Source: Candidatus Poribacteria bacterium (GTDB lineage: Bacteria; Poribacteria; WGA-4E; PCPOR2b). From it: DNA of 64,000 bases. Below, one piece after another: positions 20,007 to 45,017 of this stretch. The translations under genes and the position numbers were made by a program. Position 1 is the first letter of the stretch, and the number at the start of each line of letters is the position of its first letter. The notes beneath the pieces were generated by a model. It ran no database searches, was not told where the DNA came from, and saw only the letters and a list, made by a program, of their open reading frames with translations. The stretch spans positions 4,128,001 through 4,192,000 of the forward strand of contig OZ220744.1 in assembly GCA_965116925.1 (NCBI GenBank), in the 5' to 3' direction.

Positions 20007-20058
20007 GCATGTGGTAGTATGTCAAAAACCAACTATTCGCTTTAAGGAGGTTATCCTC

Positions 20059-21669
20059 ATGAAATCTCACCACAAGTACCGCTTCTGGTTCGTTTCTGTA
20101 TTGGTCCATTTATGCCTTGCGATTGTCTTCAGTGTCGCCATCATCAATCAAACGACTCCGAGTGATGTTGATACTTTAGAAGTGAGTATTCTACAAGTTA
20201 AACCGGTGCCGCTTGTAAAGAAAACACCCCGTATAGAGGCACCTATTGTCACGCCGACACCAGTGCCTAAGTTTCAAATTGAACCTCAGTCAACGTCAGT
20301 ACAGACCCGAACGCTCACAACCCGTCAGGTGAGATCTACGTCCGTATCTGTACCGAAAGCCGCAGCGGTGGATGCCCCGGTATCTCAGTCTCCGGCACAA
20401 TCTGTGCGTGCAGAAATTTCTGTCCAAAGCGCATCTCAGGTCAATGACCGTCCCGCTCAATCACTTGCCACTGCTGTTGATCTCCCTGTTCAGTCGGATG
20501 CCCCGTTAGCGGCAGGATTGAGCGAGGGGAGTTCGCTCTCTGGCGCAGGCAGTCTTGGCGGAGGTAGTGGTAGTGGGGTTGGACGGGGTTCCTTCGGTTT
20601 AGGAGGTGGTGTGAGCCAAACCCCGACTAGAGGAGGAACGGGTTTAAGTTCGCTGGTCGGTGCTGAAGGCGCGTCTAACATAGACGACACACTTGCCAAC
20701 GTTACCGAAAAGGTAACGCTAGGGGGTGGTGTGCCTGAGCTTCCTGCTGGCAGTCCTGGTGCTATAGTTGTGGGTCGCGGTCGAGATATCATGGGTCGCT
20801 TAAACCTTGCTCGTTTTGAAGATCCGCTTCACCCAAGCGCAGATATATGAGGCAGCGGCGTCGGAAATTTCCGATTTGGGGCAGGTCTGTCCTATTTAGT
20901 ACAATCACTGAATCAAAAGACTAAAATCAAGACCCAACTTGTTGAAGCGGTCCACCTGAAAGATGCATCGTTCTTTCAGACACCGATTCTTTTTATGGAA
21001 CCGATACCCGGCGGCTCAAAGGTAACTCCAGAACATCGGAAGAGAGTGTACAATTCCCACAGGATTCCGATCTGGAATACTGCGCGTCCGGGTGGATTAA
21101 GTAAGTACACTGACGCTGAAGTCCAAAGATTGCGAGAATATGTGATCAATCGTGGCGGATTCCTCTATCTAGCAACGCACGGGAATGCGGATAACGCAAT
21201 GAAAGGGACAAGAAAGGTGCTGCGGGACCTCCTGCCAGAGCATCACCTCGGCTTTGTTCCAAATGATCACTCGATTTACAACGCCTATTACTCGCTAAAC
21301 GGTCCTTTGCGTTTTCCCCTGCGCACTATTGGGACTATCGGACATCTCATCCCTCTTCACTTTGGTCCCTATTCCGAATTGCAAGGTATCACGATTGATG
21401 GTCGTCTTGCTGTGTTAGTAGATACCGAGCAGATGATGCATGTGATTGATGGCAAAGTTCAAAGACCTTTCTACGGCAAGTTCCAAAATCAGAATCAGAT
21501 TTTAGAGGAGTTTGCACCCCACGCGGCGCGGCACCTAATCAATGTTGTCGTTTATGCTATCACACATGGGAACATTTCGGATTATAGCAACTACGTTCCT
21601 GAAACACTTAAAAACTCTGGTGATGATAGTTATCGTAAAAAAGCCCCAGTTGTCACACAGAAATTGTAA
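20059..21669 (+). CDS. Membrane-anchored DUF4159-like protein, probable selenoprotein (Sec codon TGA 20848-20850, codon 264 of 536)
   Basis: AAGGAGG SD; the two ORF-track halves share a frame and are joined by 48 open codons; the TGA aligns with Cys in the 17424 paralog. Confidence 0.85.
20851..20894 (+). promoter_or_regulatory. Candidate bacterial SECIS element
   Basis: TGGGGCAG-GT-CTGTCCTA hairpin with apical GU about 35 nt after the UGA, preceded by a TCGGAAATTTCCGA palindrome. Confidence 0.7.
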
Positions 21670-21801
21670 GTTGCTGTTCAAACGTCAAACAAGGTTAGGG
21701 AAAAATTGAAAGAGTTGCACGATTTGTCAACAGGCGAATTTTGAAAGGAGGAAGCGGTATGTTTATCTAGCACTATTGAATAAACATACGCACAAATTGT
21801 T

Positions 21802-23484
21802 ATGATGAATTTAATCCGTTATACTTATCCCATTTTTTTTGGTGTATTTCTGTTCGCCTTTTTTATCGGTTGTGGTGATGATGATGACGAGGTTGTTGAC
21901 GTAGGTCCTGCGGTCGTATCAACGCCGGAGGGCGTGGTCAAAGGTACGATTGTAGATTTGGTAACAGAGCAGGGGATTGCGGGCATCCAAGTGACGTTGT
22001 CGTCGTCGAAAAAGTTACCGGGGGGAGATTTTGAACAGGAATCGATAGCGTCAGTCACGACGGATGGGAGTGGCAACTTCGTATTTGGCGAGTTGAAATC
22101 AGGCGAATATATAGTGAAGCTGAATGCCCCGGGTTACTTGGACCAACAAGCGTCGGTAACGGTGACACGTAAAGAGTCAGCGACGGTTCATTTTCGCCTT
22201 GAACCGGGTGTGAGGTTTAAGGGTACAGTCGTATCGGACGATGGAAATGCAGTCTCCAATGTTCTCATCACTCTGGGTGACCGTGCGTCGGTGACCAAGG
22301 GTGGTGGTCAATATGAGATATCGCCTGTATCGAAGGGCGTGTACAACTTGACAGCGGAAAAGCCGGGTTATCAGACGACGCATATACCGGGTCTAGTTGT
22401 AGGTGATAATGATATTTCCCAAAAGGTCACGATTCGTCGTCAAGTAAGGGGTCAGATAGTTTTCGCTCGTGGTGATGTAGCGGGCAAGGACTTTTTTGGT
22501 ATTTCAGTGATAAATGCGGACCGTACGGGTGAGAAGCCGCTGACGCACCTATTCGACGTTAATCCGTCGTGGTCGCCGGGTGGCAATGAAATAGTGTTTA
22601 GTCGTTCAGAAGCCAACCGTCCGTTCCAAATCTATATAATGGACAGCGGTGGTGGGAACGCCAGACCCATCAGTGGGGATCACTTCAATGATAGACATCC
22701 AGCGTGGTCACCCGATGGTCGTCGTCTAGCGTTTGTTCATGCACGTGCGTTGGGTCAACCTGCGGTTTACACGATGGATTCAAATGGAGACAATCGTGTT
22801 CGTCTTGCGGATTGCCATGCGGATTCCCGTCCAGCGTGGTCACCCGACGGTAGTCAGCTTATCTATAACCATGCGCTTAAGGAAGGGATTCGTAATCTTT
22901 TTGTGTTGGACATAGAGACATTTCTCGCCGCCAAGGAGGCACCTCCTACCCAAGTCATACCAGAACCGGAACCAGAACCGGAACCAGAGATAGTGCCGGA
23001 ACCAGAACCAGACCCTGAACCAGAGGTAGAACAAAAGCCGGAACCGGAGCCAGACCCGCATCAAACGCCGGATGGGGAGAAAGATAAACAGGAAGGTGAG
23101 GGTGATCCGCCTCAAGCACCGAGTGCCGATCCACCAGCCATAGAAGAGGGTATTCACCGTTTGACAACGAGTACGCACCACGATATCCACCCGGATTGGA
23201 GTCCAGATGGTTCAAAATTGGTGTTTACCAAGGAGAGTGCGCCGCTGAACGCTGCGGTGTATGTTCTGGATCTGTTTTCGCTGGTTCAGACCCGGTTGAC
23301 GGGTGAGGAGGGTTACAACGGGTATCCGTGTTGGTCTACCGATGGGACAAAGATAATCTTCAGCAGTAACCGCAACGGTAGTTTGGGTATCTGGATGATG
23401 GATGCCGATGGTAGTAATACCGCCCTTATTTTTGATGAATTGGGACAGGATGATATTATCAGCCAGCAGGCATGGCGTGAGTAA
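21802..23484 (+). CDS. Lipoprotein with carboxypeptidase-regulatory-like domains, TolB-like PD40 propeller and (PE)n insert, copy 1
   Basis: Lipobox FFIGC; G.V.D..T and APGY/KPGY beta-sandwich motifs; PxWSPDG repeats. Confidence 0.88.
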   Translation: MMNLIRYTYPIFFGVFLFAFFIGCGDDDDEVVDVGPAVVSTPEGVVKGTIVDLVTEQGIAGIQVTLSSSKKLPGGDFEQESIASVTTDGSGNFVFGELKSGEYIVKLNAPGYLDQQASVTVTRKESATVHFRLEPGVRFKGTVVSDDGNAVSNVLITLGDRASVTKGGGQYEISPVSKGVYNLTAEKPGYQTTHIPGLVVGDNDISQKVTIRRQVRGQIVFARGDVAGKDFFGISVINADRTGEKPLTHLFDVNPSWSPGGNEIVFSRSEANRPFQIYIMDSGGGNARPISGDHFNDRHPAWSPDGRRLAFVHARALGQPAVYTMDSNGDNRVRLADCHADSRPAWSPDGSQLIYNHALKEGIRNLFVLDIETFLAAKEAPPTQVIPEPEPEPEPEIVPEPEPDPEPEVEQKPEPEPDPHQTPDGEKDKQEGEGDPPQAPSADPPAIEEGIHRLTTSTHHDIHPDWSPDGSKLVFTKESAPLNAAVYVLDLFSLVQTRLTGEEGYNGYPCWSTDGTKIIFSSNRNGSLGIWMMDADGSNTALIFDELGQDDIISQQAWRE

Positions 23485-23529
23485 AAGGCAAATCCCATAT
23501 CTGAAACAACAACATTAGCTTTCAAACCG

Positions 23530-23556
23530 AAGCGTCGCTGTTTAGCGGCGCTTTTT
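23530..23556 (+). terminator. Intrinsic terminator
   Basis: AAGCGTCGCT-GTTT-AGCGGCGCTT followed by a T run. Confidence 0.75.
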
Positions 23557-23769
23557 GGGTTTTATGGCAATCCAATCTAGCGACCCGTAGCACCTTAATC
23601 AAAGGATAAGCCCAATTCAAGGCGTATCATCATTTCACTTACACAAGGGTTTCTTGGAAAATTGGTAGACCACCTTCCTTTGCTCAACACGTTAGGCAAA
23701 TCAACTTTTATCCATTGAGGAACGTTCAGGGAAATACTGTACAGCACTTGGGACATTGTTCATTGTGCA

Positions 23770-23798
23770 TTGACAAATCTACAGCATTTTGGGATAAT
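23770..23798 (+). promoter_or_regulatory. Candidate sigma70 promoter
   Basis: TTGACA-N17-GATAAT. Confidence 0.5.
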
Positions 23799-23838
23799 CT
23801 TCTATCTTTGATTGATCGACTAAGAGGAGGTTACCGTA

Positions 23839-24531
23839 ATGCAAACACCCGATTTTGCTAGGACAGATTTCAGCCAGTTGGTGGATAAGGATCTGCAATT
23901 CCTGATTGAGAGTTTCCCCAAGCCGGGGCGGAGCTATGAAGAGATTGCTCAGTTGATCCATCATCTACCGAGAACGCTTGAATCTATGCTAAACAGTGAA
24001 TCCTTGTTCAACAAGATCCGCGATCGAAGTCTGCTGATATTGGAGATTTCACCGTTTCTATTCTTCAGTGTACTCCTGCGTCGCAGCTTAATGGACCAGA
24101 GAATCATAGGGGATAAGAAGGTAATCAACTATATCGCGAATCTCCTCAGTCTGTTCGTTAGGACAGATCGATTGTATCGCGTCCATCGACATGATAAACA
24201 GACCCATCACTATCTGACGGACATGGCTCAAGAGGCAGCAAACGCAGATACCCGCCGGCAGTTCCTCATCTACTCCCATATTGGCAATTACTCACTTTAT
24301 ACTACAGGCATCTTTCCACAGTGGATCGAATATCGTCGTCGGTATAAAAACCGTCCGGTGAATACACAATTTTATGTCGATTTTGGGCGCGAATACTATG
24401 AACGAGCCTCATCACATACGATGGCACGGGAATATGATCTCGGTGAAGTCTTTTTTCGTCTGTCGATTATGTTTGAAGTCTATAAAGAAGCACTTAATCA
24501 TCTCGCAAAACAGTATTTAGTTTTGTCGTAA
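23839..24531 (+). CDS. Hypothetical protein
   Basis: GAGGAGG SD; 230-aa ORF, family not named. Confidence 0.75.
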   Translation: MQTPDFARTDFSQLVDKDLQFLIESFPKPGRSYEEIAQLIHHLPRTLESMLNSESLFNKIRDRSLLILEISPFLFFSVLLRRSLMDQRIIGDKKVINYIANLLSLFVRTDRLYRVHRHDKQTHHYLTDMAQEAANADTRRQFLIYSHIGNYSLYTTGIFPQWIEYRRRYKNRPVNTQFYVDFGREYYERASSHTMAREYDLGEVFFRLSIMFEVYKEALNHLAKQYLVLS

Positions 24532-24596
24532 ATGAGGAAGACGAACAAATTGGGAAACGGGAAAGAGCGGAACGAAAGGCAGGAGGTATAACAAGC

Positions 24597-25478
24597 ATGG
24601 ATAAGGTAGATGTACACGTGCACGTGTTCGCCAAGTTGAGCGACGTATACCCGCGCGGCGTCAGTGGCTTGGCACCGGCGGACAAAGAAGCCACCGCCGA
24701 ACAATTGCTGAGGGAGATGGACGCGGCGGATATCGCCAAGACGGTGTTGATTGATATGGGAGGCACTCGAATCGAGGAGCATAGGTATGTAACCCACTGC
24801 GTCCAGAAGTGGCCCGACCGCTTTACTGCTACTGGACTAGTGGATGCAGACGATCCAGATCCGCCCACGCGCCTGAAGGAGTTGGTCGAAGCTACCGGCA
24901 TTGAAGGCATCCGAATCGGCGATCTCGGCGATCCGAATGCCACACGTGTCGAGGCTCTGAAGGCTTACCCTCTGTTTCAGTGTGCGGACGAGTTGGGCGT
25001 CAATATTAATATCTATACAGGTAGTGCCAACATCGACTGTGTTGAGATGTTGGCGACTGCCTTCCCCAACCTCAACATCTCTCTGGATCACCTCGGTGTG
25101 ATGCCAAGTACCCCTAGCGTAGTAGACCGCTGGGGCCGTCCCCGCTTTGACGATGAGCCGTTGCCACCTGCAACCTATCCACGGGTTATCGACATGGCAC
25201 GATTCCCCAATGTGTACATTAAAGTTTCGGGAGAATACGCTTTTTCCAAGAAGCCTTGGCCCTACGAAGACATGCAACCGATGGTCAGGGGGATCTACCA
25301 AGCCTATGGACCCGATCGTATGATGTGGTGCACAGACTCTCCGTGGATCCTTGAAGAGCCGGGCTACCAGAAACTGGTAGATCTAATCGACTTTCATCTG
25401 CCTTCCCTCAGCAAGGGCGAAAAAGACAAAATCATGGGGGGGACGGCACTGAAGATTTGGTTCAAAAGGGAGAATTGA
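24597..25478 (+). CDS. Amidohydrolase family protein (Amidohydro_2-like)
   Basis: DVHVH, LDHLG, PNVYIKVSG and RMMW.TD.P motifs. Confidence 0.9.
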   Translation: MDKVDVHVHVFAKLSDVYPRGVSGLAPADKEATAEQLLREMDAADIAKTVLIDMGGTRIEEHRYVTHCVQKWPDRFTATGLVDADDPDPPTRLKELVEATGIEGIRIGDLGDPNATRVEALKAYPLFQCADELGVNINIYTGSANIDCVEMLATAFPNLNISLDHLGVMPSTPSVVDRWGRPRFDDEPLPPATYPRVIDMARFPNVYIKVSGEYAFSKKPWPYEDMQPMVRGIYQAYGPDRMMWCTDSPWILEEPGYQKLVDLIDFHLPSLSKGEKDKIMGGTALKIWFKREN

Positions 25479-25646
25479 GGCGGAACGATAAGATCAGTCG
25501 AGGGGCTTGGGCTCTCATGTAACGGAGCCGGTTCGTCGGAGGGCACGGAGCTCCCTCAACGAACCGGGGGGATCTGTATTGACGTACTCCCAAACCTAAA
25601 GGATTGGGATTTAGACCTAAAGGGTTTTTCGTTAAGTGTATAGGTC

Positions 25647-26511: not shown

Positions 26512-27705
26512 TCAAGCCCGTCCGTGATGCGACTCAGCCGGCGCACGATACTTCACCCCCAGATGCGGGGTTTCCAGACGCTGATGGTCTTGTATCCGCG
26601 AAGTGAGGCAACTCTCTAGCATCCCACTGACAATCAGAGTGCGTTCTGCCGGGTAAGGCGCGCCCCCGGTCATAATCATCTCCACAATTTTGGCAACTAG
26701 GCAGGCGGAGTAGGTCACGTTGGGTGTCGGTGGTAGAAAAAATTGCGTGGATACCGGGTCCGGTACACCCTTCAGTTTTGCAGCGAAGCAGTAGTCTCTG
26801 ATTGCACCGTTGAGCATGAGTAGTGTGGTTTGGAGTCCATCGTTGCGTTCGATAAGATAGGCTGCTGGATTTTCGACCAGCTTTTGGAGTTCGCCGCTGC
26901 GGAGCAGATCTTGAGTTCGACCATCTTCTTCCGTCAGTCCACAAGGGCTGTCGCATCGAGAGAGAGCTGATTCCAAAAGTTCTTTTGACCAACGCCCTGT
27001 CTCGCCAGCCTTCCAGACCGCCTCCCCCTCTATTAATTGAACCGCCTTGACCCCGGTTTCACCACCTTTGCGGCGTTCAACCATACACTGCATGGCTTCG
27101 AGTGCGTGATAATCCATCGGATCGGAACCGCCGACCCCTATCATCAAGGCACTCTCAATCTCGCACTCCAACGGCAATTCGACATCTGGCAGACGCCAAG
27201 TTACTGGCAGAGACGATCCGGCGAGAATCGGAAATCCCAAGCGATGCCCGTCGTCCACCATCTCCTGCGCCTTCTCAAAACTGTAGGAGAGATGTTTGTC
27301 ATTGTAGATCGGTACAGCGCGACCGTCCTCCTCAAAGACTTTGACGCACTCCTTGAAAAATTCGTAGCGTGGATAGAGAACTTGACCTTTCTCATTTCTT
27401 GGATATTCACCATGTTCACCAATCAGTAACACAGCATCGACAGCGAGTTTCTCTCCACCACAGCGCAACGCCTCGGAGATCGTCGGGTATACGGAGAAAC
27501 CGAACTCACGGGCGCGGTCAGTAGATTGGTCTCCTCCAGGTCTCTGGTCAACGTAGAGGGAAACGATTTGGGTATCGGGGCGATGCCAGCGTCCCTCATA
27601 AGGGTAGCCGACCATAAGGCGGTCAGCAAAATGTTGGGCATGTGACAGGTAACGATAGATGGTAGCAAGTACAGCGATGCGTTTGACGGGCGGGTTGGGT
27701 GTCAT
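26512..27705 (-). CDS. Hypothetical protein, Gfo/Idh/MocA-like (paralog of 28006)
   Basis: VLLIGEHG.YP.NEKGQ, NDKHLS and HALE..QCMVERR shared with 28006. Confidence 0.75.
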   Translation of the reverse strand: MTPNPPVKRIAVLATIYRYLSHAQHFADRLMVGYPYEGRWHRPDTQIVSLYVDQRPGGDQSTDRAREFGFSVYPTISEALRCGGEKLAVDAVLLIGEHGEYPRNEKGQVLYPRYEFFKECVKVFEEDGRAVPIYNDKHLSYSFEKAQEMVDDGHRLGFPILAGSSLPVTWRLPDVELPLECEIESALMIGVGGSDPMDYHALEAMQCMVERRKGGETGVKAVQLIEGEAVWKAGETGRWSKELLESALSRCDSPCGLTEEDGRTQDLLRSGELQKLVENPAAYLIERNDGLQTTLLMLNGAIRDYCFAAKLKGVPDPVSTQFFLPPTPNVTYSACLVAKIVEMIMTGGAPYPAERTLIVSGMLESCLTSRIQDHQRLETPHLGVKYRAPAESHHGRA

Positions 27706-27708
27706 TTT

Positions 27709-28005: not shown

Positions 28006-29199
28006 TCATGTTCTCCAAAAAGTCGATTCTTCCGTCGGCTGATAAGAAATATTCAGGTGTGGTGTTTCCTGTCGTGTCTGATCCTGAAAAAGGCTCTCTA
28101 CACCAGCAGCGACCAACCCGGTAGTAAGCAGCGTGCGCTCGACTGGATAGGTCGCTACTCCGCTCAGGAACATCTGTTCAACATTGTTGACCAACGGTGA
28201 GAAGAAGTTGGCAAGGGTCGTGCGGGCTGGGGGCATCGGCAGGTACATCTGTGTGGACAGCGGAGCGTCTTGACCTTCGAGGCGAGCGGCGAAGTTGAAA
28301 TCTTGCACCAGTCCATTCATCAGAATCATCGTCGCTTTGAGCCCATCCAAATGCTCGTACTGGTAGGCAATTGGATCTTCCACCAGCTGCTTCATTTCGT
28401 CTAAGGTTGGAAAAATGTTGTTGAACCCCTGTCGTGAGGGGGTGAGGGTGTGACTGCGGCTGAGGGCGGCTTCAAACAGTTCACGCGACCACAGCTCCTC
28501 GTGATGCGCTTCCCAGAATTTGTCGCCGCGGTAGGCTTGCAGCCATTTGACACCTTTTTCGCCGCCTTCGCGGCGTTCCACCATGCACTGAATGGTCTCC
28601 AAGGCGTGGAAGTCGTAGCTGTCAACGCCACCGATCGCGATACATAGTGCCTCCCGGACGCGGGCACCCAACGGCATGTCGATGGACGGGGTGCGCCAAG
28701 TCACCGGCAGGGACGATCCCGACATGAACGCAAAGTCCATCTCTTGAGAGATGTCGTACATCTCTTTTGCCCAATCCCAGTTCCAAGAGAGATGCTTGTC
28801 GTTGAAAATGGGTGCAGTTTTACCGGTAGTTTTGTAGACCGAGACAACCTGCATGAAAAGTTCGTAGCGTGGGTAGAGATGCTGCCCCTTTTCGTTGGTG
28901 GGATAGCTGCCGTGCTCGCCGATTAGTAGGACTCCATCAACGGCAAGGTCGCTGCCTCCCAGAGTTAGGGTGTCGGCAACGGTCGGATAGATTTTCATTT
29001 GAGGAAAGCGTTCTGCACGATCACAGCTCAGATCACTTTCAGGTCGCTGATCAACGTAGAGTGAGACCAGATCCATCGGCGGATGGTGGTGCCGACCGTT
29101 CCAGCCGTATCCCTCCAAGAAGCGATCAACGATGTGCTGACCGTGGGAATACTTGCGATACTCTGTGACGATTGCCGCAATTTTGGGGCGTTTGGTCAT
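28006..29199 (-). CDS. Hypothetical protein, Gfo/Idh/MocA-like (paralog of 26512)
   Basis: Same motifs as 26512. Confidence 0.75.
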   Translation of the reverse strand: MTKRPKIAAIVTEYRKYSHGQHIVDRFLEGYGWNGRHHHPPMDLVSLYVDQRPESDLSCDRAERFPQMKIYPTVADTLTLGGSDLAVDGVLLIGEHGSYPTNEKGQHLYPRYELFMQVVSVYKTTGKTAPIFNDKHLSWNWDWAKEMYDISQEMDFAFMSGSSLPVTWRTPSIDMPLGARVREALCIAIGGVDSYDFHALETIQCMVERREGGEKGVKWLQAYRGDKFWEAHHEELWSRELFEAALSRSHTLTPSRQGFNNIFPTLDEMKQLVEDPIAYQYEHLDGLKATMILMNGLVQDFNFAARLEGQDAPLSTQMYLPMPPARTTLANFFSPLVNNVEQMFLSGVATYPVERTLLTTGLVAAGVESLFQDQTRQETPHLNISYQPTEESTFWRT

Positions 29200-30033: not shown

Positions 30034-30972
30034 ACCCAAGTTGCTAGTTATTGAAAATCCATGGGTTTTCCGTTAAACTTGAGGGGATTGACTCATACCC
30101 CCTCAAAAGGAGAAACCCATGGACCTACAAATTGTAACCATTTTCTATCTCTGTGACAAGCTGTTAGAAGCACTTAACTCAAAAACCTCTCCACAGGCGC
30201 AGATGACTGACGCCGAAGTCATGACCACCGGGGTGGTCGCTGCGTTGTTTTTCGGTGGTAACTTCCAAGTGACTTGTGACTTTCTACACACTCATGGCTA
30301 TATCCCCAATATGCTGTCAAAAAGTCGTTTCAATCGACGGTTGCATCGGATTAAACCGATGTTCATCACATTGTTCAAAATCTTAGCCGAAAGTTATGTA
30401 AAACTCAATCAACAGCAGATTTATGCGATAGATACACTGCCTATTGCGGTCTGTGACAATATCCGCATTAGTCGGTCAAAACTGTATACCGATGAGGCAT
30501 TTCGTGGGTATCAAGCGTCCAAGCGTCGGTACTTCTATGGCTTGAAAGTTCACTTGTTAGTGACAGCGAGCCAACAGCCTGTTGAGTTTTTTCTAACGCC
30601 AGCAAGCATCAGTGATGTCGAGGGATTACAGTATTTTGATTTTGACTTGCCACCGGGCAGTTGTGTCTACGGGGATAAAGCATACAATAACTATGAGATA
30701 GAGGATATATTGGCAACCATTGGAGTGGACCTCAAGCCGACACGCAAACAGAATTCCAAGCGACCTTATCCACAGTGGGAGACCTATGTGGCATCTTGCC
30801 ATCGTAAGTCTGTCGAGACCGCTGGCAGTTTAATTGAGCGATTGCTGCCTCGTTCGATTCATGCTGTAACACAACAAGGATTTGAATTAAAAGTGGTCTT
30901 GTTTGTATTAGCAAGCAGTATATATCAACTTTAACTCCAACCAACTACTCAATTATAGGTAGCAACTTGGGT
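30034..30972 (+). mobile_element. IS982 family insertion sequence
   Basis: TIR ACCCAAGTTGCTA...TAGCAACTTGGGT; flanking AT-rich direct repeat of about 8 bp (TATTTATA-like). Confidence 0.9.
30119..30934 (+). CDS. IS982 family DDE transposase
   Basis: SRFNRR, IDT.P, YFYGLKVH, GDKAY and R..VET motifs. Confidence 0.92.
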   Translation: MDLQIVTIFYLCDKLLEALNSKTSPQAQMTDAEVMTTGVVAALFFGGNFQVTCDFLHTHGYIPNMLSKSRFNRRLHRIKPMFITLFKILAESYVKLNQQQIYAIDTLPIAVCDNIRISRSKLYTDEAFRGYQASKRRYFYGLKVHLLVTASQQPVEFFLTPASISDVEGLQYFDFDLPPGSCVYGDKAYNNYEIEDILATIGVDLKPTRKQNSKRPYPQWETYVASCHRKSVETAGSLIERLLPRSIHAVTQQGFELKVVLFVLASSIYQL

Positions 30973-35423: not shown

Positions 35424-35656
35424 TATTTCAGGCTTCGGCGGGATGTCAGTCTTGGCACAAAGATTGCGTATTACTATTGTAATCACATTTGCCTCCAAAA
35501 ATTAATAGCCGGGTCAGTTTTGGGAATTGTGGTTTCCCTAGGTATTTTTCATTCGTTTCGAGGTCCGACTGGCACTCGCCTCGCCTATCAACTGGAATGC
35601 TTCCGTTGAAACGACATTTCCATCACCTGACCCGGCTTTTTTATTACGGATCCACG

Positions 35657-36553
35657 ATGAATCCATTCATTCAAATCGCTCAAGGTGTTATTGGAGCGAT
35701 TCTTATATCTGCCTTCTTCATTCTCAGATCAAGTTTCGGTGAAGCACGGCATACGCTTAGCATCATCGGTGCTATCATTATCTTTATCGCAAGTGGCTAC
35801 ATTCTGCGAACACGGTTAATCCGATGGGGGAGCCGGCAGGTCTGGCTCAAATACCATCAAAGGCTCGCATCGTTAGGATTATCGCTTGTTCTCATCCACT
35901 CAGCAGCCCAACCGCTCGTTTGGCATTCGTGGTTGGCGTTTACGTTAGCACTACTCAATCTTGGCACGGGTGTCGCGGTCAGTTTCACCACACATCGCGC
36001 ACGGCGGATTCTTCTCCGCTGCCATCTGGCACTTGCACCAATCTTGCTGCTTTCCGTTGTCCTACATGGTAGAGAAAAGTTAGACCACGATGAATTCTTT
36101 CCTTTGACTGAGGTTCACGACATCCCATGTGCGAAATGCCATACGTCGGAGAAACTGCTATTTACGATTGATCCACACTTTCAGAGCGATTTAGATAGTG
36201 GAGGGATTGTCTCAGAGGACTTGCAGTGGGAGTTTAATCTGCATGGGACTTCCCTCTCTCGACAGACAACGATTTCAACAAAAGAGACGGATAATCGCTG
36301 GCTGGTAACCGATGAAAAAAACGAGGGTGAATATACAGTCAAGAAAGCGGACGATCGGCTAAGTGTCCATACAGATGCTGTGTACGAGGCTTATACCTGT
36401 CTCACCTGTCATGTTCACAATACCCCGGAGATCCAATTTGACCACGAAAGTCATGGGGTCAAATCCTATAATGCCTGCCTCAACTGCCATCAGACTGTTA
36501 TCAATGGGGTAAAATACGGAACTCGAAAGGCGAATTGGGAGTATAATCCGTGA
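35657..36553 (+). CDS. Membrane protein with C-terminal multiheme c-type cytochrome region
   Basis: Several TM helices containing His; CAKCH, CLTCH and CLNCH motifs. Confidence 0.8.
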   Translation: MNPFIQIAQGVIGAILISAFFILRSSFGEARHTLSIIGAIIIFIASGYILRTRLIRWGSRQVWLKYHQRLASLGLSLVLIHSAAQPLVWHSWLAFTLALLNLGTGVAVSFTTHRARRILLRCHLALAPILLLSVVLHGREKLDHDEFFPLTEVHDIPCAKCHTSEKLLFTIDPHFQSDLDSGGIVSEDLQWEFNLHGTSLSRQTTISTKETDNRWLVTDEKNEGEYTVKKADDRLSVHTDAVYEAYTCLTCHVHNTPEIQFDHESHGVKSYNACLNCHQTVINGVKYGTRKANWEYNP

Positions 36554-37300: not shown

Positions 37301-38842
37301 CTATTCAACCGCTCCAATTGCTGCGGCTTGCGGCGCACGAGTTGGGATTCTTTGCTGCGCTTGCTTATCTGCCGGCACATAGCCGGAGTAATCTGAAATT
37401 TGACCGTGCGTTAGTGCATAGATGGCAACATTGGTCATAAAACGGTAGACGCCGGGCGAGTAGCGCACCCGACGGCTTGGCAGACTGATTGACTCCATCG
37501 CACACATATAGTCTCGACGAATGATCAGCACAGAAAGTTTGTCGCCGATAAAAATGCCTTCAAGAAAATTCCGTGATAGATTATAAGCAGGGCGTCCACT
37601 CGTTAAAAAAAAACCGATTGTCCTACCGGGATGGTAAATGTCAAAGCCGATGGGTGGTCCACCCATCTGATAGAAGTTGTGATAAATTTCATGGCTGTTG
37701 GGGATACGTCCCACATGATATTCTGGCATGATGTGCCGCATATTAGTCAGAAATAGACGGGTCATTGATTGGTCAGCAGCATGGGTACCACAGTCATCAA
37801 AAATGAGGAACCCTTCTTTTTCAACCAGATAGCGCCGCAACGAGACCGCTTCTAATCGAGAGAATTGACTACTCTTGATACTGCGAAGCATTCGCCCGGT
37901 GTCCAATGCTCTTACACCTTTTGCTTTAGTAAGAGCGGGATTATGTCCAGTCATGACGAGAATCGGTGATTTCATCACATTGGCGTCAGTCAACTTTAGT
38001 GCTCCGCCCTCGACGTTCATGTCTGTTTTAATTTTCGTCCGTTCGTTCAACCACTTTGCCCACGCGTTCAACGAAGACGCATCTGCCCACCAATCAGAGA
38101 GGTCATGGCGAAGGCGCGTAAAACGAAAGATCCCACGAATATCACGACCTCTACCAACAACGCGGCCTCCCGGCTCGCCGCGGGGCAGGGGTGGCACTTC
38201 AAGATTACCAAGCATAACGCCATCAACTACCCCGTCCAAGGCGTCCCCGATGGCTCCAACCTCCTTGACCATCGCAAGTTCCAACGGCAACTTGAACCCA
38301 TCAGTGATCCTGACCTGCACAGTCCCCCCAGACGACATTCCACGACCACTGCCTCCAATCCCACGACTCATGCGCCCACCATTTTTACCTGTGCCTATGA
38401 CGACAAATGAAGATAATGCCAGCGCATCAGAAATAGGGGCATCTGTATGTGTTACGCCCTTAGGAATAAGTGTATTGGAGACCACTTTTGGCACATTGGG
38501 GTTGAGGGGGGCATTAAGTTTCAAGGCTTGATTTGAAAACGTGGAGACGGTCTGCGGTTGGACAGTGGCTGTACGAACGCCAGCCGCATTTGTCGTTCTC
38601 GGTTGGGTTTTAACCGGTTCAACGATGACCGTGTTTTTGACTGGCACCTCTGGCTTTTGAACGGGTTTGATGACGGGTTTCCGAACTTGGGGTTTGGGTG
38701 GCGGATTCGCTGGTTGCAAAACTTCAATGCCTATCAAATCCTTAAATGATTGGGTTTGTGTTACTAGATACCCTCCAATAATAGCAGCAAGACACAGATG
38801 GATTGCTAAAGAGATAAACCAAGAACGCGAAACGGTGGACAT
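37301..38842 (-). CDS. Membrane-anchored DUF4159-like protein (DW/TGH/DDC type)
   Basis: N-terminal TM and Pro-rich linker; SDWWAD, P.LVMTGH, GFLIFDDCG, HEIYH.FY and LEGI motifs. Confidence 0.8.
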   Translation of the reverse strand: MSTVSRSWFISLAIHLCLAAIIGGYLVTQTQSFKDLIGIEVLQPANPPPKPQVRKPVIKPVQKPEVPVKNTVIVEPVKTQPRTTNAAGVRTATVQPQTVSTFSNQALKLNAPLNPNVPKVVSNTLIPKGVTHTDAPISDALALSSFVVIGTGKNGGRMSRGIGGSGRGMSSGGTVQVRITDGFKLPLELAMVKEVGAIGDALDGVVDGVMLGNLEVPPLPRGEPGGRVVGRGRDIRGIFRFTRLRHDLSDWWADASSLNAWAKWLNERTKIKTDMNVEGGALKLTDANVMKSPILVMTGHNPALTKAKGVRALDTGRMLRSIKSSQFSRLEAVSLRRYLVEKEGFLIFDDCGTHAADQSMTRLFLTNMRHIMPEYHVGRIPNSHEIYHNFYQMGGPPIGFDIYHPGRTIGFFLTSGRPAYNLSRNFLEGIFIGDKLSVLIIRRDYMCAMESISLPSRRVRYSPGVYRFMTNVAIYALTHGQISDYSGYVPADKQAQQRIPTRAPQAAAIGAVE

Positions 38843-38933
38843 AATTTTTATCCCCTTACTCCTGAAGTTTTATCATATGAATGACGCTTTAGCCAAGTGC
38901 TATGAGTCTATCGATTGGATTGCCATAAAACCC

Positions 38934-38960
38934 AAAAAGCGCCGCTAAACAGCGACGCTT
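38934..38960 (-). terminator. Intrinsic terminator (duplicate of 23530)
   Basis: Reverse complement of the 23530-23556 hairpin. Confidence 0.7.
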
Positions 38961-39023
38961 CGGTTTGAAAGCTAATGTTGTTGTTTCAGATAGGGCAGAT
39001 ACCATCATTCACGCCATGCCTCA

Positions 39024-40706
39024 TCATTCACGCCATGCCTGCTGGCTGATAATATCATCCTGCCCCAATTCATCGAAAATAAGGGCTGTATTGCTACCGT
39101 CGGCATCCATCATCCAGATACCCAAACTACCGTTGCGGTCACTGCTGAAGATTATCTTCGTCCCATCGGTAGACCAACACGGATACCCGTTGTAACCGAC
39201 CTCGCCCGTCAGGCGGGTTTGAACCAGCGAAAACAGATCTAGAACATACACCGCAGCGTTCAGCGGCGCGCTTTCCTTGGTAAACACCAATTTCGACCCG
39301 TCTGGACTCCAATCCGGGTGGATATCGTGGTGTGCACTAATTGTCAAACGTTGAATCCCTTCTTCGAGTGCTGGTGGATCGGCACTCGGTGCTTGGGGTG
39401 GGTCACCTTCACCTTCCTGTTTATCTTGCTCATCATCCGGCGTTTGATGAGGATCCGGCTCCGGTTCCGGCTTTTGGGGTGGGTCCGGTTCCGGCTCAGG
39501 CTCCGGTTCCGGCTCTGCTTCGGGTTCCGGTTCCGGCTCCGGTTCTGGTATGACTTGTGTTGGCGGTGCCTCCTTGGCGGCGAGAAATGTCTCAATATCC
39601 ACCACAAAAAGATTTCGTATCCCTTCGTTCAGAGCATGGTTATAGACGAGTTGAGTCCCATCGGGCGACCACGCAGGTCGAGAATCTGCGTGGCAGTCGG
39701 AAAGCCTGACACGATTGTCTCCGTTCACATTCATAGTGTAAATTGCAGGTTGACCCAACGCACGCGCATGAACAAATGCTAGACGACGACCATCGGGTGA
39801 CCACGCTGGATGACGATCATTAAAATGGTCTCCGCTGAGTGGCATCGCATTACCACCACGATTATCCATAATATAGATTTGTAGCGGACGATTGTTTTCT
39901 GAACGACTGAACGCTATTTCCATACCGTTAGGGGACCACGACGGGTTGACATCAAACACATGGGTCAACGCCTTTTCTCCATTCCGATCCGCGTTAATCA
40001 CTGAAATACCAAAAAAGTCATTACCCGCTACATTGCCACGCGCAAAAACTATCTGACCCCTTACTTGACGACGAATCGTGACCTTTTGGGAAATATCATT
40101 ATCACCTACAACTAGACCCGGTATATGCGTCGTCTGATAACCCGGCTTTTCCGCTGTCAAGTTGTACACGCCCTTCGATACAGGCGATATCTCATATTGA
40201 CCACCACCCTTGGTCACCGACGCACGGTCACCCAGAGTGATGAGAACATTGGAAACTGCATTGCCATCGTCCGATACCACTGTACCCTTAAACCTCACAC
40301 CCGGTTCAAGGCGAAAATGAACCGTCGCTGACTCTTTACGCGTCACCGTTACCGACGCTTGCTGGTCCAAGTAACCGGGCGCATAGATCTGTATTATATA
40401 GTCACCCGCTTTCAGTTCGCCAAAAAGGAAGTTACCACTCCCATCCGTCGTGACTGACGCTATCGATTCCTGTTCAAAATCTCCCCCCGGCAACTTTTTC
40501 GACGACGACAACGTCACTTGGATACCCCCAATCCCTTGCTCCGTTACCAAGTCTACAATCGTACCTTTGACCACGCCCTCCGGCGTTGATACTACCACAG
40601 GACCTACATCTACAACATCATCTTCGTCATCTCCACAACCTAATAAAAATAAAAATAGCGTCAAAGCAACAAAGCTGAAATAGGCGTAACGGATTAGGTT
40701 CGACAT
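39024..40706 (-). CDS. TolB-like PD40 lipoprotein, copy 2
   Basis: Lipobox LLGC; highly similar to 21802; start MSNLIRY. Confidence 0.88.
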   Translation of the reverse strand: MSNLIRYAYFSFVALTLFLFLLGCGDDEDDVVDVGPVVVSTPEGVVKGTIVDLVTEQGIGGIQVTLSSSKKLPGGDFEQESIASVTTDGSGNFLFGELKAGDYIIQIYAPGYLDQQASVTVTRKESATVHFRLEPGVRFKGTVVSDDGNAVSNVLITLGDRASVTKGGGQYEISPVSKGVYNLTAEKPGYQTTHIPGLVVGDNDISQKVTIRRQVRGQIVFARGNVAGNDFFGISVINADRNGEKALTHVFDVNPSWSPNGMEIAFSRSENNRPLQIYIMDNRGGNAMPLSGDHFNDRHPAWSPDGRRLAFVHARALGQPAIYTMNVNGDNRVRLSDCHADSRPAWSPDGTQLVYNHALNEGIRNLFVVDIETFLAAKEAPPTQVIPEPEPEPEPEAEPEPEPEPEPDPPQKPEPEPDPHQTPDDEQDKQEGEGDPPQAPSADPPALEEGIQRLTISAHHDIHPDWSPDGSKLVFTKESAPLNAAVYVLDLFSLVQTRLTGEVGYNGYPCWSTDGTKIIFSSDRNGSLGIWMMDADGSNTALIFDELGQDDIISQQAWRE

Positions 40707-40852
40707 AAAAATTCGTGGAATATATTTATCCGACAGGAATCGATAAACAACCACTTCCTCCTTTCAAAATTTGCCCGCTGACAAAATGCAAGGTTAAATC
40801 TTCATGAGATGATAGCGGAAGACAGTTCAAAAAACAAAGAAATTAATCGTGC

Positions 40853-41015
40853 TAGGACTCACGCAATTGAACGGTCAAAGCCCTGTAGTTCGGCGATTCA
40901 TCGCCGCTGGACACCGTTGCCAACGCCCGATGAATCGGGCAACTACAGCAGAGGCTCCATAAGGAGTCCGTAGGGAACGCAGATCTGCGTTCCCTACGGA
41001 AGTGCGTAACTCCTA
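40853..41015 (-). mobile_element. 163-bp miniature element family A, copy 3
   Basis: Same TIRs and hairpins in reverse orientation; no clear TSD. Confidence 0.85.
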
Positions 41016-41022
41016 CAGAAAT

Positions 41023-42642
41023 TTACAATTTCTGTATGACAACTGGTGCTTTTTTACGATAACTATCATCACCAGAGTTTTTAAGTGTTTCGGGAACGTA
41101 GTTGCTATAATCCGAAATATTCCCATGGGTGATGGCATAGACCACAATGTTAATCATGTGCCGCGCCGCGTGGGGTGCAAATTCTTCTAGGACTTGATTT
41201 TGATTGTACAAGTGACCATAGAACGGTTTCTGAACTTTGCCATCGATCACATGCATCATCTGCTCGGTATCTACTAACACAGCAAGACGACCATCAATCG
41301 TGATACCTTGCAATTCGGAATAGGGACCAAAGTGAAGGGGGATGGTTATTCCGCCATACACGACATGCCGCAAGGGAAAACGCAAAGGACCGTTTAGCGA
41401 GTAATAGGTGTTGTAAACCGGGTGATCATTCGGAACAAAGCCAAGTGGATGCTCTGGCAGGAGATCTCGCAGCACCTTTCTTGTCCCTTTCAATGCGTTA
41501 TCTGTATTTCCATGCGTTGCTAGATAGAGGAATCCGCCACGATTGATTACATATTCTCGCAATCTTTGGACTTCAACATCAGTGTATTTACTCAATCCGC
41601 TCGGACGCCTCGTATTCCAGATCGGAATGCTGTGGGAATTGAATACCCGCTTCTTGTGTTCTGGACTTATCCGTGAGCCACCTGATACCGGTTCCATAAA
41701 AAGAATCGGCGTCTGAAAGAACGATGCATCCTTCAGGTGGACCGCTTCAACAAGTTGGGTCTTGATTTTAGTCTTTTGATTCAGTGATTGTACTAAATAG
41801 GACAGACCTGCCCCAAATCGGAAATTTCCGACTCCACTGTTTCATATATCTGCGCTTGGGTGAAGCGGATCTTCAAAACGAGCAAGGTTTAAGCGACCCA
41901 TGATATCTCGACCGCGACCCACAATTATAGCACCAGGACTGCCAGCAGGAAGTTCAGGCACTTCTCCTCCTAGCGTTACTTTGTCGGCGACATTGGCAAG
42001 TGTATCGTCGATGTTAGACGCGCCTTCAGCACCGACCAGCGAACCGAGACCCGTGCCTCCTCTGGTCGGGGTTTGGCTCACACCACCTCCTAAACCGAAG
42101 GAACCCCGCCCAACACCGCTACCACTACCTTCGCCAAGACTGCCTGTGCCGGAAAGCGAACTGTTTCCGCTCAGTCCCGCAGCTAACGGGGCATCCGACT
42201 GAACCGGGAGATCAACAGCAGTGGCAAGTGAGTGGGCGGGACGGTCATTGGCGCGAAAAGATTGAGAAGCCCCTTGGACAGAAATTTCTGCACGCACAGA
42301 TTGTGCCGGAGACTGAGATACCGGGGCATCCACCGCTGTGGCTTTCGGCACAGATACAGAAGTTGATTTCACCGGATGGGGTGTAAAAGCCCGGGTCTGT
42401 ACCGATGCTGACAGACGCTCGATTTGAAAATTAGGCGTGGGCGTAGGTACGATGGAAGGGGCTACTATGCGTGGGGTTTTCTCCACAGGCGGCACCGGTT
42501 TAACTTTGAGAATGCTCACTTCTAAAGCATCGACATCGCTCCGAATAGTTTGGTTGACGATGATAACGCTGAGAACCATCGCTAGGCATAGATGGACCAA
42601 TAGAGAAACGCACCAGAAACGGTACTTGTAATGAGATTTCAT
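41023..42642 (-). CDS. Membrane-anchored DUF4159-like protein, probable selenoprotein (TGA at 41844-41842, codon 267 of 539)
   Basis: Same SD and start as 20059; HPSADI-TGA-NSGVGNFRF in frame with 41023..41697. Confidence 0.85.
41798..41841 (-). promoter_or_regulatory. Candidate bacterial SECIS element
   Basis: Hairpins identical to those in 20851-20894. Confidence 0.7.
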
Positions 42643-43343
42643 GAGGGTAACCTCCTTAAAGCGAATAATTGGCTTTTGACATACTCCCACATGTGAGCGT
42701 GCCAGTTCCGGTTTGCCCGAAAGGGGCGTTACCGAACCGTGAGTCCACGATTCTGTGAGTGCTGAAACAGCACAACAGAAGCATGACATCGGGATTTGTA
42801 AAGTCCCAAGCGCATGTGAGATTCCGCTATTAACAACACTTACTACCCGAAGAGGATTCAGCAACATCAATTTACATCTACTAGCCCCAAGGTAGTCTTA
42901 CGGTGTCTCGCTCAATGGACAATACTTCGTCCATTTTCTATATTTATACTGCTTTAGGCGGTTCAGAATGAAAGGTTTTTGTAACAGGTCATTTCTACCT
43001 AACCCCAATGATTGGGAAGGATGGCAGCTCATTGATTGGTCAGCCACCACTCATACACTGTTACTTGAAAAAGCATTGTAGCATGTTTTCGTTAGAAATA
43101 CAATTTTTTAATAGATAGCATGGTTAAGCGCGCAACATCCCCTTGAATCCCCGGAACATTACACTATACGGAAGTTGCTACTTAAATGCTAAATTGAATC
43201 AATCACCGCCTACAATATAAACCTCCTTGCATTCATTTGCAACCAGTTTTTTGAGGGGTATGGACATATCATGTCCATACTCCAAAAGTAACTGGAATTT
43301 TTGTGTGATTGGTTGAAGCAATTTTTTTATGGCGCACTGGGTT

Positions 43344-45017
43344 TTACTCACGCCATGCGTGTTGGCTGATAATATCATCCTGACTTAACTCATCAAAAAC
43401 AAGAGCGGTATTGCTGCCATCTGCATCCATGATCCAAATGCCAAAACTTCCATTACGATCACTGCTGAAAACAATCTTTGTACCATCAGGAGACCAACAC
43501 GGATAGCCGTTGTAACCTTCCGCACCGGTCAATCGGATTTGGCTTAGCGAAAATAGATCTACGACATACACCGCAGCATCGAACGGGGCGGTTTCTTTAG
43601 TAAAGACTAATTTTGAACCGTCTGGACTCCAATCCGGGTGGATATCGTGGTTTGCACTAATTGTCAAACGTTGAATCCCTTCTTCGAGTGCTGGTAGATC
43701 GGCGATCGGTGCCTGAGGTGGATCGCCCTCCCCCTCCTTCTTCTCTTCACCATCTGGGGTTTGATGGGGATCCGGCTCCGGCTCTGGCTTTTGGGGTATC
43801 TCCGGTTCCGGTTCTGGCTCCGGTACTATCTCTGGTTCCGGTTCCGGCTTCGGTTCTGGTTCCGCTTTCGTAGGGGGCGCGTCTTTGGCGGCGAGAAATG
43901 CCTCGATGTCCACCACAAAAAGATTCCGTTTGCCTCCCTTCAGAAGTGCATAGGTATAGACGATCTGAGTGCCATCAGGTGACCATGTAGGCCTAGCGTC
44001 TACATCGGAGTCGGCAAGTCGAACCCGATTCCCTCCGTTCACATTCATGGTATAAATTGCTGGTTGCCCCAAGGCTCGCGCGTGAACAAAGGCGATGCGG
44101 CGACCATCAGGAGACCAAGCCGGGTGTCGATCGTTGAAATGGTCCCCGCTGATGGATCTGGCACTGCCGCCGCGGTTATCCATAATGTAAATTTGTGGTA
44201 GCCCCCTGTTTTCTGAACGACTGAAAACAATTTCTCTACCATTAGGGGACCAGGTAGGCTGTAGGTCAGAAAGGTCTGTTAGAGACTTTTCGCCTGTACG
44301 GTCAGCGTTAATCGTTGAAATCCCAAAGAAGTCTTTGCCAACAACATCGGCGCGTACGAAGACAATCTGTCCCGTTACTTTGCGTCGAATAGAGATCCTT
44401 CGCGAGATGTCGCTATCACCGACAGTTATACTCGATATGTGTGTTGTGTGATAGCCCGGCTTTTCCGCAATCAAGTTGTATTGTCCCTTGGAGACCGGGG
44501 AAATTTCATATTGTCCACCACCATTCGTTACTGCCGCGCGTTCACCTAAAGAGATAAGAACATTTGCAACGACATTGCCATCGTCAGAGACCACGATGCC
44601 CTTAAACCTGACACCGGGTTCAACAAGAAAATTAACAATTGCAGGCTCTTTGCGAGTGACTTCCACCGGTGCTTGTTGACCCAGATAACCACGGGGATTG
44701 ATTTCCAAGACATATTCACCGGTTTTTAGTTCTTCAAATATGAAGCTCCCACTAGAATTGGTGGCTGTTGAAGCGACATTTTCCCGCTCAATATCGCCCC
44801 CTGGGAGTTTCTTTTGTGCAACCAATATAACTTGGGCATCTATAACGCCCTGCTGTGTGACCAGATCTACAACGGTTCCTTTGATAACCCCTTCCGGTGT
44901 TGCCACAACCCGGGGCCCTATATCATCAACAACTTCGTCATCACCACAGCCGATAAAAAACACAAACAGCGTCAAAGCAAAAAGACCGAGATAGGAGTAA
45001 CGGGTTAAGTTCGCCAT
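43344..45017 (-). CDS. TolB-like PD40 lipoprotein, copy 3 (more diverged)
   Basis: Lipobox FFIGC; same architecture as copies 1 and 2. Confidence 0.88.
   Translation of the reverse strand: MANLTRYSYLGLFALTLFVFFIGCGDDEVVDDIGPRVVATPEGVIKGTVVDLVTQQGVIDAQVILVAQKKLPGGDIERENVASTATNSSGSFIFEELKTGEYVLEINPRGYLGQQAPVEVTRKEPAIVNFLVEPGVRFKGIVVSDDGNVVANVLISLGERAAVTNGGGQYEISPVSKGQYNLIAEKPGYHTTHISSITVGDSDISRRISIRRKVTGQIVFVRADVVGKDFFGISTINADRTGEKSLTDLSDLQPTWSPNGREIVFSRSENRGLPQIYIMDNRGGSARSISGDHFNDRHPAWSPDGRRIAFVHARALGQPAIYTMNVNGGNRVRLADSDVDARPTWSPDGTQIVYTYALLKGGKRNLFVVDIEAFLAAKDAPPTKAEPEPKPEPEPEIVPEPEPEPEIPQKPEPEPDPHQTPDGEEKKEGEGDPPQAPIADLPALEEGIQRLTISANHDIHPDWSPDGSKLVFTKETAPFDAAVYVVDLFSLSQIRLTGAEGYNGYPCWSPDGTKIVFSSDRNGSFGIWIMDADGSNTALVFDELSQDDIISQHAWRE

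Follow-up and report, generated by a model that had tools for sequence, protein, structure and literature searches.

The described systems closest to the one reported here are the TonB and TolA tethers, the propeller protein TolB, the extracytoplasmic function (ECF) sigma factors, the DUF4159 domain and the bacterial selenoproteins. In Escherichia coli K-12, both TonB and TolA carry a Ser, a His four residues later (S16/H20 in TonB, S18/H22 in TolA), a Leu at +11 and a second Ser at +15 (SHLS). According to a 2025 paper (PMC12204202), a 'motor box' strand lies in the disordered stretch after such a helix, and a class of transducers was proposed there in which an SHLS helix and a Pro-rich linker carry a vWA rather than a TonB head; these proteins provide a precedent for a non-TonB head on such an anchor. 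In passages of PMC1088965, the bacterial selenocysteine insertion sequence (SECIS) is described as a stem-loop shortly after the UGA, with a G in a small apical loop. Here, we analyzed 64,000 nt of Candidatus Poribacteria DNA (contig OZ220744.1; this whole stretch is referred to as the window), which encodes four DUF4159 proteins (D1 to D4), two of them, D2 and D4, interrupted by an in-frame UGA, together with three propeller lipoproteins (L1 to L3).

With moderate confidence, we propose that these genes represent an envelope module found throughout Poribacteria, in which a selenocysteine (Sec) protein with the layout of TonB or TolA docks on a motor and meets a TolB-like lipoprotein, and in which D1, fused to a sigma factor, acts as a signalling arm. 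The tether, a single-pass inner-membrane protein, would consist of a short basic cytoplasmic tail, a transmembrane (TM) helix with the pattern S-x3-H-x6-L, a strand-like segment, a Pro/Gly/Ser-rich linker of approximately 200 residues and a DUF4159 head with a GATase1-like α/β fold. The head of D2 and D4 carries one Sec, encoded by UGA and directed by a hairpin similar to the SECIS of fdhF. We infer that the anchor docks on a motor of the ExbBD/TolQR type encoded elsewhere, and that head and lipoprotein come into contact across the periplasm in the manner of TolA and TolB. Through the Sec or Cys, this contact, or else a bound ligand, might then respond to redox conditions or metals, and the sigma-fused D1, which has Cys, may work with secreted PD40 propellers to turn the same periplasmic event into transcription.

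Open reading frames (ORFs) of the window were listed with and without UGA read-through and scanned with Pfam. In line with an earlier note on this DNA, made from the letters alone, the scan returned four DUF4159 (PF13709) genes, with E values of 7e-20 to 2.9e-23 and 1e-17 and scores of 63–83 bits vs. a gathering cut-off of 25.9, and three lipoproteins, in each of which two CarboxypepD_reg domains are combined with a PD40 propeller; no additional copy or remnant was detected by tblastn within the window. The order of UGA gene, lipoprotein gene and terminator given in the note was recovered for D2–L1 and D4–L2, and the SxxxH motif that it had read in the TM helix of all D proteins is as stated (SVLVH in D2, SLLVH in D4, SFAIH in D1 and SLAIH in D3). 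The Pro/Gly-rich linker is indeed long (approximately 200 low-complexity residues), but its enrichment is moderate (P 9–11%, G 11–12%), with S, A, V and T equally common. The span that the note had assigned to the module (20008..45017) leaves D1 outside and includes D3, a divergent protein of the classical DUF4159 form without the Sec/Cys loop. The note had also missed the fusion of D1 to an ECF sigma factor and a fourth PD40 gene, encoding a secreted protein rather than a lipoprotein, located before D1.

The membrane anchor and its paired lipoprotein

Every D protein has a basic N-terminus and a single hydrophobic 19-mer. The S-x3-H pattern recurs within the helix in 49/52 cluster representatives of the wider family, whose aligned members are 21–50% identical to D2, and 40 of these 49 have Leu at H+7. 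Profile comparisons were performed with hhalign, employing a 14-sequence N-terminal profile of the D family as the query. This profile aligned to TolA over 25 columns (E 3.7e-4, probability 36.6%) and to TonB over 24 columns (E 1.2e-3, probability 19.5%), in both cases with the Ser and the His in register, vs. one column each for the controls TolR (E 0.18, probability 0.3%) and CpoB (E 0.32, probability 0.2%). When TonB and TolA were included in a MAFFT alignment, that Ser and His were the sole invariant columns; at the level of sequence, the alternating hydrophobic segment after the TM helix (LEVSILQV, IDVSFFTV) aligned to ISVTMVTP of TonB and IDAVMVDS of TolA. In a large set of longer proteins, all 100 matches listed for the N-terminal profile were family members or UGA-cut fragments, which left TonB no place to appear among them. 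The predicted likeness of the anchor to TonB and TolA is supported directly, if modestly, by the hhalign results. The basic N-terminus, together with the sigma factor, necessarily cytoplasmic, that precedes the helix in D1-type proteins, would place the DUF4159 domain outside the cytoplasm.

Several observations count against a motor-docked tether of this kind. The last SHLS residue, at H+11, is Ser in only 1/49 S-x3-H representatives (Thr in 10/49), and the residue at H+7 of the window copies is Phe in D2, Leu in D4 and Ile in D1 and D3. Both hhalign probabilities are low, and the alignments cover the helix only. Searched against PDB sequences at E ≤ 10, the N-terminal profile found neither TonB nor TolA, with only chance matches to the flavivirus M protein, and Pfam returned nothing relevant for the four N-termini at E ≤ 10, the 1TM_TonB models seemingly lying outside the Pfam set scanned. 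Language-model neighbours (1TM_TonB, 0.78; 1TM_TonB_rel, 0.77) were rated as a lead only. No member of the MotA_ExbB, ExbD or TolQ/TolR families occurs among the 47 window proteins scanned or the 24 ORFs flanking L017 and L004, two of the related loci considered below. Lastly, we know of no earlier case in which a TonB-like helix carries a fused sigma factor.

In its modelled fold, the lipoprotein resembles TolB, through the propeller only. The L1 model (pLDDT 78) comprises a signal helix, a disordered acidic tether, two β-sandwich domains and a propeller broken by a disordered insert, and its best PDB matches, at ranks 1–20, were TolB structures (E ~2e-15), followed by propellers of S9 peptidases. 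With 144.9 bits vs. a cut-off of 343.15 (TIGR02800), L1 is not a TolB equivalog; the secreted PD40 protein of the window reached 299.9 bits against NCBIfam propeller_TolB, below the cut-off of 343. The lipobox G-C-G is invariant in 28/28 L1 homologues. The propeller of L1, and likewise that of L2 and L3, is split by an acidic (EP)n stretch of ~70 residues (about residues 376–450 in L1); the disordered insert of the L1 model covers residues 384–447 (P ~30%, E ~24%).

The (EP)n stretch of L2 gave a weak match to the Pfam TonB_N 'polyproline region' (E 0.006), and the linkers of D1 and D3 contain basic KP-type runs. The complementary charges predicted for the (EP)n insert and the KP-type runs are suggestive.

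Homologous loci were obtained from a scan of one genome per species, and window proteins were mapped onto them by tblastn. All relatives with genomic context belong to one candidate phylum, Candidatus Poribacteria, which are uncultured sponge symbionts: the 29 related loci lie on 18 contigs, every one of them labelled as such. Recurrence of the arrangement in 29 loci argues against chance. An L1-type gene directly follows the D2-type gene in 26/27 complete D2-type genes (25 in the loci and two in the window), with 16 other genomes represented. One of these 26 L1-type genes is interrupted (L002); the single exception to the pairing is L008, where D3 comes directly after the D2-type gene. No other window protein maps beside the D2–L1 pair in L017, L019 and L020, and the flanks of L017 encode dehydrogenases, a PEP mutase, a pseudopilin and TPR proteins (Pfam), which indicates that the pair moves as a unit. 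Between each UGA gene and its lipoprotein gene, separated by 132 nt in one pair and ~270 nt in the other, no terminator was listed, and a strong one lies 3' of both L1 and L2; judging from this pattern, D2 and its lipoprotein gene are probably co-transcribed. No such terminator was listed 3' of L3.

Two conserved arms can be distinguished across the loci. One consists of an EF-Tu-like gene on the opposite strand, one to seven PD40 genes, sigma-D1, D2 and L1. The other begins with a BNR gene, followed by an optional D2–L1 pair or a lone L1 and then by D2, L1 and D3, with a PRK gene, a cytochrome-like gene and HtrA on the opposite strand. In L005, L006 and L010, a D2-type gene fills the place that stands empty upstream of L3 in the window, where tblastn detected no D2-type remnant. 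In a tree of 39 heads, window D2 grouped with L002/L001 and window D4 with L009/L012, which indicates that both arms are older than these genomes. The D family amounts to 126 representative clusters at E ≤ 1e-3 among 1.84 billion proteins. For the full-length L1 architecture, ~97 clusters at ≥59% identity were followed by a single 34% match and then by generic PD40 proteins only; from this abrupt drop, L1 seems confined to the same lineage as D2. D3 had no tblastn match among plasmids.

The sigma fusion and a possible signalling role

The N-terminal 200 residues of D1 matched PF04542 (61.7 bits) and PF08281 (31.2 bits), i.e., sigma-70 regions 2 and 4 without region 3, and D1 scored 100.3 bits vs. 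a cut-off of 42.9 against TIGR02937 (sigma70-ECF; E 8.7e-29). Similar fusions are found in ~740-aa homologues from Poribacteria (P0009–P0036) and in the distant members P0075, P0095 and P0103. With an ECF sigma factor joined to one of the paralogues, a signalling role gains support.

An ECF sigma domain is likewise attached to some D3-type genes, in three loci (L014:977-3154, L027:1241-3397 and L028:3985-6117); in two others, a short piece left of sigma region 4 stands before the D3-type gene (L003:11988-12188 and L022:9713-9913), indicating that the fusion was gained or lost repeatedly. The secreted PD40 gene, single in the window, forms tandem arrays of four to seven copies upstream of sigma-D1 in L003, L008, L024, L025 and L026. 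Given the sigma fusion and the PD40 arrays, signalling is no less likely a function than force transduction alone.

These genes might, in fact, encode a transmembrane signalling set of the sigma/anti-sigma type and no force transducer at all, an account that we consider possible, if on the unlikely side. The DUF4159 head would then be a periplasmic sensor whose Sec or Cys senses oxidants or a metal, with the propeller proteins as co-sensors or ligand carriers; sigma-fused D1 would be freed by regulated proteolysis, and the Ser and His of the helix would serve contacts between paralogue helices or recognition by an intramembrane protease instead of a motor. Consistent with this, sigma fusions recur across the family, the D3 arm keeps an HtrA/DegP-type PDZ protease as a neighbour, winged-helix membrane regulators (Pfam PF00486) occur among the generic propeller relatives, and motor genes are missing from the window and from the L017 and L004 flanks. 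However, the cytoplasmic part of D2 and D4, of ~10 residues, is too short to hold a sigma factor in the way of an anti-sigma factor, and a purely signalling role leaves unexplained both the Ser, His and Leu at the spacing of TonB and TolA and the preference of hhalign for these two proteins over the controls. Signalling and force transduction are not exclusive, and both accounts can be partly true.

The proposed motor-docked module can also be taken further. DUF4159 proteins would then be a third class of periplasmic force transducers driven by the proton-motive force, next to those with TonB/TolA heads and the proposed vWA-headed ones; in Poribacteria, the Sec acquired by the head would gate its grip on TolB-like propeller lipoproteins, and a sister copy with the sigma factor attached directly to the motor-bound helix would let pulling or redox events be read as transcription without a separate anti-sigma factor. 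In this full form, we regard the idea as speculative and unlikely.

The trans-periplasmic system envisaged by the earlier note, with an energised tether and a propeller lipoprotein, is thus borne out in part. The pairing extends beyond the duplication seen in this window, including L017, L019 and L020, SxxxH is conserved across the family representatives, and the predicted topology places the DUF4159 domain away from the cytoplasm; the anchor resembles TonB and TolA, and the propeller fold resembles TolB. The signalling aspect had escaped the note.

Selenocysteine in the DUF4159 head

The structure model of D2 residues 195–536 (mean pLDDT 77) matched PDB 4i66 in Foldseek (E 1.8e-10, TM 0.72 on the target), in line with the sequence profile (E 1.5e-12), and showed weak matches to GATase1-like folds (gamma-glutamyl hydrolase, a ThuA-like protein and IFT52). 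No TonB or TolA family match, including TonB_C and TolA domain III, was obtained in Pfam or NCBIfam, the head being DUF4159. The Sec position falls within a Gly-rich loop specific to the lineage, which follows the first β-strand (HPSADI-U-GSGVGNFRFG). The described protein closest to the head, Hoch_4089 (PDB 4i66; function unknown), has the same domain by both HMM and fold. In contrast with classical DUF4159 members, the D1/D2 subfamily has HPxxxI-[U/C]-GSGVGNFRFG for DWWxD and MEP for TGH; a third subgroup shows yet another motif at the place of the Sec loop.

A second alternative, which we regard as improbable, takes D2 as a membrane-tethered periplasmic redox enzyme, similar to a 1-Sec peroxidase or a thiol oxidoreductase, with the lipoprotein as its substrate or scaffold and an anchor that looks TonB-like through convergence of a signal anchor. 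D2 shows the single Sec and the Cys homologues typical of redox selenoproteins, this Sec occupies the loop that follows β-strand 1 of a Rossmann-like fold, and, among 28 L1 sequences, Cys510 is invariant and Cys338 is present in ≥90%. Against such an enzyme, the classical DUF4159 proteins have no Cys at that place (DWWxD), so that the fold as such is not that of a redox enzyme, and the sequence of the periplasmic part of D2 contains no resolving Cys, the Sec being its only (seleno)thiol outside the membrane. Convergence would also leave the family-wide conservation of the Ser, His and Leu unexplained.

D2 and D4 each contain one in-frame TGA, beyond which the frame stays open for ~270 codons. 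Among D2-type genes, the codon at this column is TGA in 25/27 and TGC in 2/27, and all 25 TGA genes are open to a common C-terminus; among sigma-fused genes, it is TGT in 13/14 and TGA in 1/14. Window D1 has TGT at 18849-18851. Full-length homologues of ~540 aa (P0002–P0008) and the ~740-aa sigma-fused forms have Cys at the UGA column. The database entries P0038, P0039, P0042 and P0046 end exactly before it, as do 7/8 N-terminal fragment clusters of distant relatives, and gene callers have split genes of this family at the UGA into dozens of database entries of ~260–266 aa and ~463 aa. In the head tree, rooted at its midpoint only, Sec occurs on both main branches and each of the two Cys groups forms one clade. 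Sec-type hydrogenases are reported in Poribacteria in passages of PMC13582414, and passages of PMC5649159 report selA/selB in most genome bins of sponge symbionts, which belong to various phyla.

Downstream of the UGA, a hairpin spans +30..+47, with a GGUC loop at +37..40; it is thus a stem-loop shortly 3' of the UGA with a G in a small apical loop, the form described for bacterial SECIS elements. Codons 271–278 (FRFGAGLS, +22..+45) showed a synonymous entropy of 0 in 22 distinct Sec genes, and the block of codons 271–280 had the lowest value of 54 blocks (0.18 vs. a gene mean of 0.77). The 15-nt hairpin core is intact in 24/24 Sec copies listed vs. 4/15 Cys copies, in which synonymous changes strike both the loop and the stem. 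The hairpin shares GCAGGUCUG and the GGUC loop with the SECIS of E. coli fdhF, but the lower stem is not alike. Another hairpin (GUCGGAAAUUUCCGAU, +13..+28) was rejected as the SECIS because its 5' arm varies without compensation.

Some points speak the other way. The D2 loop begins at +37 vs. +22 in fdhF, 15 nt farther from the UGA, and the thermodynamic stability of the hairpin is unremarkable (z -0.55 to -2.3). There is no tRNA in the window and no sel gene among its proteins, so that the Sec machinery was not seen there, and the Sec loop was modelled at pLDDT <50, which means that no pocket can be read from the model. Rfam gave no match at the gathering score over the window, nor at E ≤ 10 around the UGA. 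Weighing the sequence evidence as a whole, we conclude that the UGA in D2 and D4 is read as Sec. The opposite view, in which the UGA is a true stop and each of D2 and D4 splits into two separate genes or pseudogenes of a decaying duplication, could draw on the 260–266-aa entries left by gene callers and on the lack of tRNA-Sec and sel genes in the window, but it is already contradicted and hardly tenable, as Cys stands at the TGA column in homologues, 25 genes share a conserved, stop-free frame downstream, synonymous sites are frozen exactly at the hairpin in Sec copies only, and Sec lies on both main branches of the midpoint-rooted tree.

Window features and comparison with known systems

The features of the module are compiled in Table 1.

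Table 1. Position of the module genes and associated elements within the window (+, forward strand; -, reverse strand).
Feature	Position	Strand	Description	Evidence or remark
PD40s	16133..17134	+	Secreted six-repeat PD40 propeller with cleavable signal peptide, without lipobox; precedes D1	Pfam PD40, E 2.1e-59
D1	17424..19661	+	ECF sigma factor (regions 2 and 4) fused in frame to TM helix, linker and DUF4159	Pfam, NCBIfam; start set by homologues
D2	20059..21669	+	Predicted 536-aa selenoprotein; TM helix at residues 11-29, ~200-aa linker, putative periplasmic DUF4159 domain with Sec264	
In-frame UGA of D2	20848..20850	+	Read as Sec	TGA/TGC column among D2-type genes; Cys in full-length homologues
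Putative SECIS of D2	20869..20894	+	Hairpin +30..+47 with GGUC loop	Invariant block +22..+45
L1	21802..23484	+	Lipobox (Cys24), two CarboxypepD_reg, PD40 propeller split by acidic (EP)n insert	
Terminator after L1	23529..23554	+	Intrinsic terminator	11-bp stem and T run
D3	37301..38842	-	Classical DUF4159 protein, DWWAD motif in place of the Sec/Cys loop	Pfam, E 2.9e-23
Terminator after L2	38936..38961	-	Intrinsic terminator	Sequence identical to that after L1
L2	39024..40706	-	Lipoprotein	90% identical to L1
D4	41023..42642	-	Second predicted selenoprotein copy	86% identical to D2
In-frame UGA of D4	41842..41844	-	Read as Sec	
Putative SECIS of D4	41798..41823	-	Block and hairpin	Same as D2
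L3	43344..45017	-	Third lipoprotein, upstream of D4, without its own DUF4159 gene	73% identical to L1

The start of D2 was set at ATG 20059, and TAAGGAGGT is conserved in 12/12 aligned upstream regions. Approximately 300 nt upstream of right-arm D2-type genes (window 42643..43000, -) are conserved across genomes at the DNA level, including the hairpin AAAATGGACGAAGTATCGTCCAT; this DNA may be a leader or regulatory region.

Neighbouring genes were also inspected. The EF-Tu-like gene (14222..15481, -) encodes a divergent GTPase of 419 aa that scored 260 bits vs. EF-Tu cut-offs of 450–520 and 47 bits to SelB, and it is kept just upstream of the PD40/sigma-D1 arm in L001, L002, L013, L022 and L026. 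A 354-aa protein without family match (35489..36553, +) has hydrophobic N-terminal segments and three CxxCH motifs, and is therefore a possible membrane multihaem cytochrome; its gene is conserved next to D3, along with those for a PRK-family kinase and an HtrA protease. A DDE transposase gene of an insertion sequence (IS) element (30119..30934, +) separates the two arms of the duplicated cluster. Two paralogous 397-aa proteins (26512..27705, - and 28006..29199, -) belong to no Pfam or NCBIfam family, and a similar pair of ORFs without family match is found in L004 (14342-15520 and 15545-16735). A CHAD-domain gene (8374..9359, -) is present in two ORFs, with a stop and a frame change; it was rejected as a further UGA gene on account of the frameshift (a true frameshift, a pseudogene or a sequencing error), and the other TGA-extended ORFs of the window were rejected because their TGAs are the stops of upstream genes.

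With regard to novelty, DUF4159 was named only in the Pfam paper within the literature searched, and no publication on this protein was found in the literature on Poribacteria and selenocysteine. No PF13709 entry was found in the table of families that a 2026 review gives for prokaryotic selenoproteins (PMC13188914), DUF4159, PF13709 and Poribacteria are absent from four supplementary files of the deep-Sep paper, and the main text of the force-transducer paper (PMC12204202) contains neither 'DUF' nor 'PD40'. The D2-type proteins thus appear to form a membrane-anchored, periplasm-facing selenoprotein family that was not found catalogued in the sources searched and that resembles known TonB/TolA-type tethers and bacterial selenoproteins, and the D2–lipoprotein pair looks like a cell-envelope device not previously described. 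DUF4159, for which there is a crystal structure but no function, would be assigned a function that can be tested, as head of a tether built like TonB and TolA. If the anchor truly binds a motor of the Ton/Tol type, the range of what such motors drive would widen, and the sigma-fused copies would represent a new way of coupling envelope events to transcription. For genome annotation, genes of this selenoprotein family are cut at the UGA by gene callers.

Compared with TolB, L1 shares the PD40 β-propeller, for which TolB gave the best structural matches, but it is lipid-anchored, has two CarboxypepD_reg domains in place of the N-terminal domain of TolB and carries the ~70-residue acidic (EP)n insert that splits the propeller. 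D1 resembles ECF sigma factors with regulatory extensions (Casas-Pastor et al., bioRxiv 10.1101/2019.12.11.873521) in combining an ECF sigma factor with a C-terminal extension that includes a TM helix; no group with a DUF4159 or TonB-like extension is described in the passages of the preprint consulted.

With TonB and TolA, the D proteins share a predicted N-in orientation and a single TM helix that has the Ser and the His(+4) and, in most family representatives, the Leu(+11). Past this helix come a candidate strand-like segment, a long linker rich in Pro that would cross the periplasm and, at the C-terminus, a globular head, and the D gene adjoins a gene for a TolB-like propeller, as tolA adjoins tolB. 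They differ in that the head is DUF4159 rather than the TonB_C/TolA-III fold, the fourth SHLS residue is missing, motor genes are not adjacent, the head contains Sec and some paralogues bear an N-terminal sigma factor. The vWA-headed transducers proposed in PMC12204202, from PVC and related phyla, share with the D proteins an SHLS-type helix, a disordered or Pro-rich linker and a non-TonB Rossmann-like head; their head, however, is vWA and their genes lie beside TPR, tolQ-like and tolR-like genes, whereas the D genes encode a DUF4159 head and have PD40 genes as neighbours.

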